64,000 nt of DNA, taken from NCBI RefSeq assembly GCF_018350175.1, contig NC_058382.1, forward strand, positions 3,038,001 to 3,102,000. The letters run 5' to 3'. This stretch comes from Felis catus (lineage: Eukaryota). The position numbers and the translations under genes were made by a program. The notes beneath the pieces are model-generated. The model saw only the letters and a list, made by a program, of their open reading frames with translations. It searched no databases and was not told the origin of the DNA. Each line of letters begins with the position of its first letter. The first letter of the stretch is position 1. Shown piece after piece: positions 26,904 through 27,076 of the stretch.

Positions 26904-27076
26904 ATGCACCCCGGGGCCCCCACAGCCTCTGGGGGCTCTGAGCCCAGCCCTCGGGAGCTGTGTGCCTTCGTGAGTGGGGCAGCCGCCCACGTGCTGCGCG
27001 CCCTACACCCTCGGAGGACCCGGCCCCCCAAAAGGAGGCCCAACCACAGGAGGTTTCTGCACAACCAGATCTGCAG
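26904..27076 (+). CDS. C19orf85: C19orf85 orthologue, coding exon 1 ([25 protein letters not shown]...[11 protein letters not shown])
   Basis: GCCATG Kozak, 173 nt, AG|GTGAGG donor; absent from the ORF track in this frame; syntenic position between ZNF628 and ISOC2. Confidence 0.85.

Follow-up and report, generated by a model that had tools for sequence, protein, structure and literature searches.

The question raised by this locus is what a FAM181-type N-terminal domain does in a protein that has none of the motifs with which its relatives bind TEAD. The coding exon concerned lies in the window, by which we mean the whole 64,000-nucleotide stretch of felid DNA that was analysed, and it is almost certainly the first coding exon of C19orf85, which is known as a FAM181-family gene without TEAD motifs. 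A preliminary description, made from the DNA letters, had proposed that this exon encodes the conserved block of a divergent FAM181 relative, that the TEAD hook is missing, and that the protein is possibly a competitor or a TEAD-independent regulator.

The relationship itself was published in 2022. Section 2.2 of PMC9710580 (Sanchez-Pulido et al. 2022) describes the N-terminal homology of C19orf85 and FAM181 and finds the TEAD motifs not recognisable; residues 59–106 of FAM181B reached C19orf85 at an E value of 1.8e-8, and the reciprocal search gave 2.0e-6. As the homology and the missing motifs have been in print since then, they carry little weight here as a discovery. The same text sets the region at residues 12–61 and marks a conserved C-terminal region that it does not spell out; amphioxus is one of the species in figure S5, and this figure may already cover the extension to residue 78 and the old lineage described below. 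What is added here is the extension of the second helix to residue 78, a C-terminal motif found from fish to mammals, and C19orf85-type domains in hagfish, amphioxus and a hemichordate. A full-text search, with most subscription journals outside its coverage, listed neither an experiment on the C19orf85 protein nor any work on what the N-terminal domain of FAM181 or PERCC1 binds, and returned no match for Gm36210.

The ATG at 26904 on the plus strand opens a frame that encodes the peptide quoted in the preliminary description, and the end given there, 27076, is the exact end of the exon. A phase 2 GT donor follows directly at 27077, and an AG acceptor before 31912 continues the frame to a stop at 32368, giving a product of 209 amino acids from two coding exons. 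The sole other GT/AG pair within the tested ranges would yield 153 residues in a different frame. The exon 1–exon 2 junction is thus a prediction from splice signals, frame and the annotated orthologue. The 209-residue product is identical at 204 of 209 positions to P0001, a felid protein annotated as a C19orf85 homolog, and judged by this full-length similarity the felid gene is the C19orf85 orthologue. With exon 1 as query 79 matches were obtained, most of them named C19orf85 or Gm36210 by the source databases. The features of the gene are as follows.

26904–27076, plus strand: C19orf85 coding exon 1, residues 1–58, last codon split by the intron (ATG, GT donor, 100% identity to the start of P0001)
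26949–27005, plus strand: helix 1 of the FAM181-type N-terminal domain, residues 16–34 (both AlphaFold2 models; L19, F22, A26 and L34 invariant)
27006–27044, plus strand: basic loop, residues 35–47, ending in KRxxN, a candidate nuclear localisation signal (R44 and N47 invariant; K/R content)
27045–27076, plus strand: start of helix 2, residues 48–58, the part common to FAM181 (structure models, profile-profile alignment)
27077–31911, plus strand: intron of 4835 bases, GT...AG (predicted from splice signals)
31912–32368, plus strand: C19orf85 coding exon 2, residues 59–209 and stop (frame, identity to P0001)
31913–31972, plus strand: continuation of helix 2, residues 59–78 (kept in vertebrate C19orf85, absent from the retrieved FAM181-type proteins)
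32027–32047, plus strand: C-terminal motif part 1, FxGVA, residues 97–103 (pattern in 118 of 148 C19orf85-type proteins)
32114–32134, plus strand: C-terminal motif part 2, acidic LFxxI, residues 126–132 (after part 1 in 102 of 148; aligned from teleosts to mammals)
32771–32788, plus strand: two candidate polyadenylation hexamers (pattern match alone)

The surroundings of the gene fit the known C19orf85 locus. Upstream on the minus strand, within 1–15230, are three SRCR-type WGTVCDD motifs (2415–6553) and ten C2H2 fingers (13147–14914), and an ISOC2-like first exon begins at 37417 on the plus strand, just downstream; we take these neighbours to be SSC5D, ZNF628 and ISOC2. One more C2H2 pattern lies at 56948 on the minus strand, and the window contains 1853 N bases. 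Five TAAT/ATTA homeobox cores, counted without a chance control, lie 5' of the start codon at 26400–26710, together with two weak TATA-like elements at 26595 and 26618. P0045 (pangolin) and P0068 (guinea pig) combine C19orf85 with the isochorismatase domain (PF00857) that the next gene encodes, and are probably gene-model fusions or read-through.

As to expression, PMC9710580 places human C19ORF85 mainly in the gut, especially the colon, and PERCC1 in gut cells. A preprint, bioRxiv 10.64898/2026.01.26.701684, reports C19orf85 as a naive epiblast marker in single-cell data from the human embryo, which would make the naive epiblast a second expression site beside the gut. In a listing of sequencing runs 20 of 24 rows contain part of exon 2 and the 3' flank; five of the runs are recorded as RNA, all of them gut or mammal metatranscriptomes belonging to two studies, and they are no measure of expression or tissue.

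The likeness of exon 1 to FAM181 is well beyond chance. Profile A2, built from 21 amniote C19orf85 sequences, was searched against 1.84 billion representatives at E values up to 0.001 and returned 118 matches, among them 21 FAM181-type proteins at E values of 7.4e-6 to 6.9e-4, one of which, P0217, is named FAM181B by NCBI. No protein named FAM181A or PERCC1 was among the retrieved matches, so the FAM181 comparison made here is with FAM181B-type proteins. The profile check that the preliminary description had called for gave a significant result: 53 C19orf85-type against 15 FAM181-type proteins aligned with a probability of 98.3% and an E value of 1.4e-14 over 52 columns at 35% identity. In the other direction, an HMM of 15 FAM181 N-terminal blocks was run against 1754 six-frame pieces of the window and picked out exon 1 at an E value of 3.3e-6, with the runner-up at 0.41; the exon scored 23.4 bits, a value reached by none of 2000 shuffles (best 5.1), and its reversed sequence scored -1.2. 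Since the 15 training proteins came from the C19orf85 profile search, this test is reciprocal and not fully independent. BLASTP of exon 1 against P0217 gave 17 identities in 55 positions at a pairwise E value of 9e-8, and the C19orf85 and FAM181 domains are overall about 31–35% identical. When both subfamilies are aligned in 31 rows, seven columns do not vary: L19, F22, A26, L34, R44, N47 and R49.

Profile, profile-profile, HMM and BLASTP comparisons therefore agree with the proposal of a divergent FAM181 relative, and by reciprocal N-terminal homology C19orf85 belongs to the FAM181 family as PMC9710580 broadly defines it. The FAM181B block quoted in the preliminary description proved, by eye, to match P0217, P0218 and P0222 letter for letter. 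Its pattern for the shared block is too narrow as a regular expression, which matches just 11 of 166 C19orf85-type and 12 of 22 FAM181-type proteins. The conserved block does lie in exon 1, as was claimed, but continues past it into exon 2.

The proteins of the FAM181 family are described in PMC10146773 as TEAD-binding co-regulators, in which the omega loop matters most for high-affinity binding. The strict pattern of this loop, RxLPxSF[FW] (TEAD interface 3, Pfam PF15238), was not found in the felid C19orf85 coding frame, in any of the 79 mammalian matches, or in any of 148 C19orf85-type proteins. These 148 proteins, each of at least 150 residues, were selected with a pattern around the NHR motif; closely related mammals are numerous among them, some partial gene calls are included, and the 2498-residue record P0228 is excluded. 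With an HMM of the loop the best of the 148 scored -0.5 bits, against 34.9–44.0 for the training proteins and up to 7.7 for 740 shuffles. Pfam PF15238, the former FAM181 model, is now a 16-position omega-loop model named TEADIR3, so blank Pfam scans do not speak against the N-terminal homology. The scan took 68 of the 118 A2 matches (21 FAM181-type and 47 C19orf85-type): TEADIR3 was found in 15 of the 21 and none of the 47, nor was it found in either felid exon or in a scan of 26 proteins. An LxALF helix is present in 14 of the 15 proteins with TEADIR3, and an interface-2 HMM built from 14 FAM181 proteins gave 1.0 bit for P0001 and at best 3.4 bits among the 148, compared with up to 7.1 for shuffles and 19.9–26.2 for the training proteins. 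The missing LxxLF helix of interface 2 is not decisive by itself, since FAM181A is also without it according to PMC10146773. The omega-loop result confirms what the preliminary description had reported, and in this narrow sense C19orf85 is not a TEAD interactor of the FAM181A/B type.

Several short segments deserve mention. In mammalian C19orf85 residues 117–122 (32087–32104) read SLAAL followed by D, where FAM181B interface 2 has SLAAL followed by F; the likeness is not significant, although amniotes in the alignment keep S117 and L121 at 90% or more. P0202 (amphioxus, residues ~388–398) and P0194 (hemichordate, ~330–340) have a common short Y..L..CMY segment, which may be a separate conserved motif. 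The amphioxus copy starts with RKLP, near residue 390, and was tried as an omega-loop remnant and rejected at -2.1 bits, below shuffles of up to 7.7.

What C19orf85 has of its own begins in the second helix. Both AlphaFold2 models place helices at residues 16–34 and 48–76, the second of which crosses the intron into exon 2, with ten-residue mean pLDDT values of 89–97 over residues 21–30 and 51–70. F60, I63, E64, A66, L70 and A71 are kept in 83–92% of 131 C19orf85-type proteins, whereas conservation is lost after about residue 61 in 20 FAM181-type proteins. C19orf85 thus consists of a module of helix, basic loop and long helix (residues 16–78, with 16–58 homologous to FAM181), a spacer rich in proline, and a C-terminal motif in two parts, with a short helix predicted at 123–131 and the rest predicted to be disordered. 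Residues 35–58 contain nine K/R and no D/E, while residues 97–135 contain six D/E and no K/R. A compact fold is absent from the models (pTM 0.26 and 0.34), and confident helices without such a fold would fit a module that folds on a partner. The hydrophobic moment of the long helix was matched or exceeded by 18–75% of 2000 shuffles, so a coiled-coil role has no support.

Comparison with known structures returned little. Neither model had a Foldseek match in the PDB, and VIA-align found no chain with a Z of at least 5 among 48,161, the best rows (Z 3.8–3.9) being generic long helices. A sequence search of the PDB gave weak rows alone (best E value 0.39 with profile A2 and 4.1 with profile A5), and the ESM Atlas returned the protein's own cluster (0.76) and nothing further. 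The Pfam family YLR146W-A weakly matched 13 of 53 members, with a best E value of 0.0079; the displayed rows fall short of the curated cut-off, and the match was treated as chance. A complex prediction for C19orf85 12–82 with FAM181B 60–114, run without alignments or folded controls, gave 0.02 in both runs (mark 0.34) and counts neither for nor against such a pairing.

The second element is the C-terminal motif. Of the 148 C19orf85-type proteins 118 have FxG[VIT]A, versus none of 15 FAM181-type proteins, and in 102 of the 148 it is followed by LFxxI; the felid protein has FxGVA at 97 and LFxxI at 128–132. Some of the 30 proteins without FxG[VIT]A are short or partial gene calls. The exon 2 segments named in the preliminary description, a poly-proline stretch and LDLFDD, are indeed present at 32006 and 32114, but what was passed over there is this conserved motif in its two parts. 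The motif is kept from teleosts to mammals at a distance of 48–457 residues from the N-terminal domain (19 proteins measured), which points to two binding sites under separate selection, joined by a flexible linker. In seven proteins of 425–669 residues (P0133, P0135, P0140, P0146, P0149, P0161 and P0163) the modules are separated by 330–457 residues, compared with about 50 in amniotes; P0133 and P0135 are named as fish and the other five are fish-like by sequence. Among FAM181-type proteins P0203, P0204, P0207 and P0208 have a conserved LFxLLxxPDY just after the omega loop; this FAM181B segment was considered as a counterpart of LFxxI and rejected at 1–2 bits, below shuffles of up to 5.7.

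The lineage looks old, with an early split from FAM181. Named C19orf85-type matches include axolotl, bowfin, reedfish, a blenny, hagfish, amphioxus and a hemichordate. The amphioxus domain scores 51.9 bits with the C19orf85 HMM versus 38.9 with that of FAM181, and the hemichordate domain 84.4 versus 48.8. A tree built from 35 rows over 49 columns separates the 14 FAM181 rows from the remaining 21 (support 100/99); it is unrooted, rests on a short alignment without FAM181A and PERCC1, and has long amphioxus and hagfish branches. The amphioxus and hemichordate proteins are without the helix extension and the C-terminal motif, scoring below shuffles with the profile of the latter, so orthology of these invertebrate genes to C19orf85 is suggested at most. 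A search with the hemichordate domain returned itself alone, from three candidates.

How then might the protein act? We tentatively favour a TEAD-independent, two-ended nuclear adaptor with one partner for each conserved module, and consider the chance of this a little short of even. Entry into the nucleus would be conferred by the basic loop. The partner on which the N-terminal helices dock would be a folded protein, probably similar in kind to what the N-termini of FAM181 and PERCC1 bind, while a second protein, for instance a transcriptional co-regulator, would be brought in by the acidic C-terminal motif. A partner common to FAM181 and C19orf85 is not assured, as their domains have just about 31–35% identity; the 30 of 148 proteins without FxG[VIT]A and the long helix that is no more amphipathic than its shuffles also count against the adaptor. 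By analogy with another protein there may be indirect support: in PMC12881181 tagged PERCC1 is nuclear in beta cells, YAP/TAZ pathway genes are not raised there, and the authors doubt that TEAD is its partner in these cells.

The competitor raised in the preliminary description is an unlikely alternative. C19orf85 would here titrate the partner of the FAM181A/B or PERCC1 N-termini, or pair with those proteins themselves, and so uncouple that partner from TEAD, much as Id proteins uncouple bHLH factors. The shared domain with its TEAD hook missing is in keeping with this, as is the expression of human C19ORF85 mainly in gut, where PERCC1 is also expressed according to PMC9710580, though not necessarily in the same cells. 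A decoy has no need, however, for the extension at residues 59–78 or for the C-terminal motif, both of which are kept across bony vertebrates, and the split from FAM181 was long ago (support 100/99, 49 columns). These elements of its own, missing from FAM181-type proteins, would favour an adaptor over a pure competitor. A different use of the same parts, which we think improbable, would be direct contact of the basic loop and long helix with DNA or RNA, as made by the basic region in bZIP or bHLH proteins, with the acidic C-terminal motif as an activation domain. The separation of charge between residues 35–58 and 97–135 and the invariance of N47 and R49 in both subfamilies would suit this, but no DNA-binding family is among the 23 Pfam families matched by 53 members at E values up to 10, the helix gives no amphipathic zipper signal above shuffles, and FAM181 proteins are described as TEAD-binding co-regulators in PMC10146773.

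It is very improbable that TEAD binding survives in C19orf85 by way of a degenerate helix resembling interface 2 at residues ~117–132. The SLAAL at 117–121 resembles FAM181B with D in place of F, and an LF pair is conserved at 128–129 within the predicted short helix at 123–131; against this, the interface-2 HMM gives scores below its shuffles (1.0 bit for P0001 and 3.4 for the best of the 148, versus 7.1), LxxLF occurs in just two of the 79 mammalian matches, and the omega loop, the main determinant of high affinity according to PMC10146773, is absent. We give hardly any credence to a distant SERTA/IER-type helical hairpin that would dock on the PP2A B55 subunit, for which helix consensus patterns were taken from bioRxiv 10.1101/2023.08.29.555174. 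The layout of helix, basic loop and helix is the same in both, and a relaxed helix-2 consensus that allows F for L is found in 160 of 166 C19orf85-type proteins, but in none of 22 FAM181-type proteins. The strict form is found in none, and the helix-1 consensus with its conserved Ser and Lys is found in none of the 166 or the 22. In a by-eye register L30 of IER5, whose mutation abolishes binding according to the same source, would fall on the invariant N47, and neither a SERTA/IER Pfam match among 53 members nor IER5 among the PDB sequence matches was seen.

Because C19orf85 has the N-terminal domain of FAM181A/B and PERCC1 without the TEAD motifs, it is the cleanest bait for the partner of that domain, and the boundaries at 16–78 for the N-terminal module and 97–132 for the C-terminal motif are useful for construct design. 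Finding the partner could bear on PERCC1, a congenital diarrhoea gene with an unsettled mechanism. One may speculate further, although we hold the whole of it to be doubtful, that the N-terminal domain rather than the TEAD hook is the core of the family; that a C19orf85 lineage without that hook goes back to the deuterostome ancestor, as the grouping of hagfish, amphioxus and hemichordate proteins might indicate; that it docks on a nuclear partner common to FAM181A/B and PERCC1; and that in gut epithelium it redirects or titrates this partner, tuning the pathway that, when lost, gives rise to PERCC1 congenital enteropathy.

Set beside known systems, the felid gene is the orthologue of human C19orf85 and mouse Gm36210, and nothing of substance differs. 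Where the text of PMC9710580 ends the region at residue 61, conservation is seen here to about 78. The IER5 and SERTAD hairpins, which bind PP2A-B55, share with C19orf85 the layout of helix, basic loop and helix and a loose likeness in helix 2, while their helix-1 consensus, Pfam families and PDB sequences do not match it. PERCC1 has an N-terminal helix homologous to that of FAM181 and C19orf85 by a weak signal (HHpred 73.2%, E value 0.28) and is gut-biased like C19orf85, both according to PMC9710580, but retains TEAD interfaces 2 and 3, which C19orf85 does not. FAM181B has an N-terminal block homologous to that of C19orf85, and FAM181B-type proteins combine it with the TEAD omega loop that C19orf85 is without, whereas C19orf85 combines it with the helix extension and FxGVA, both of which are missing from FAM181B-type proteins.
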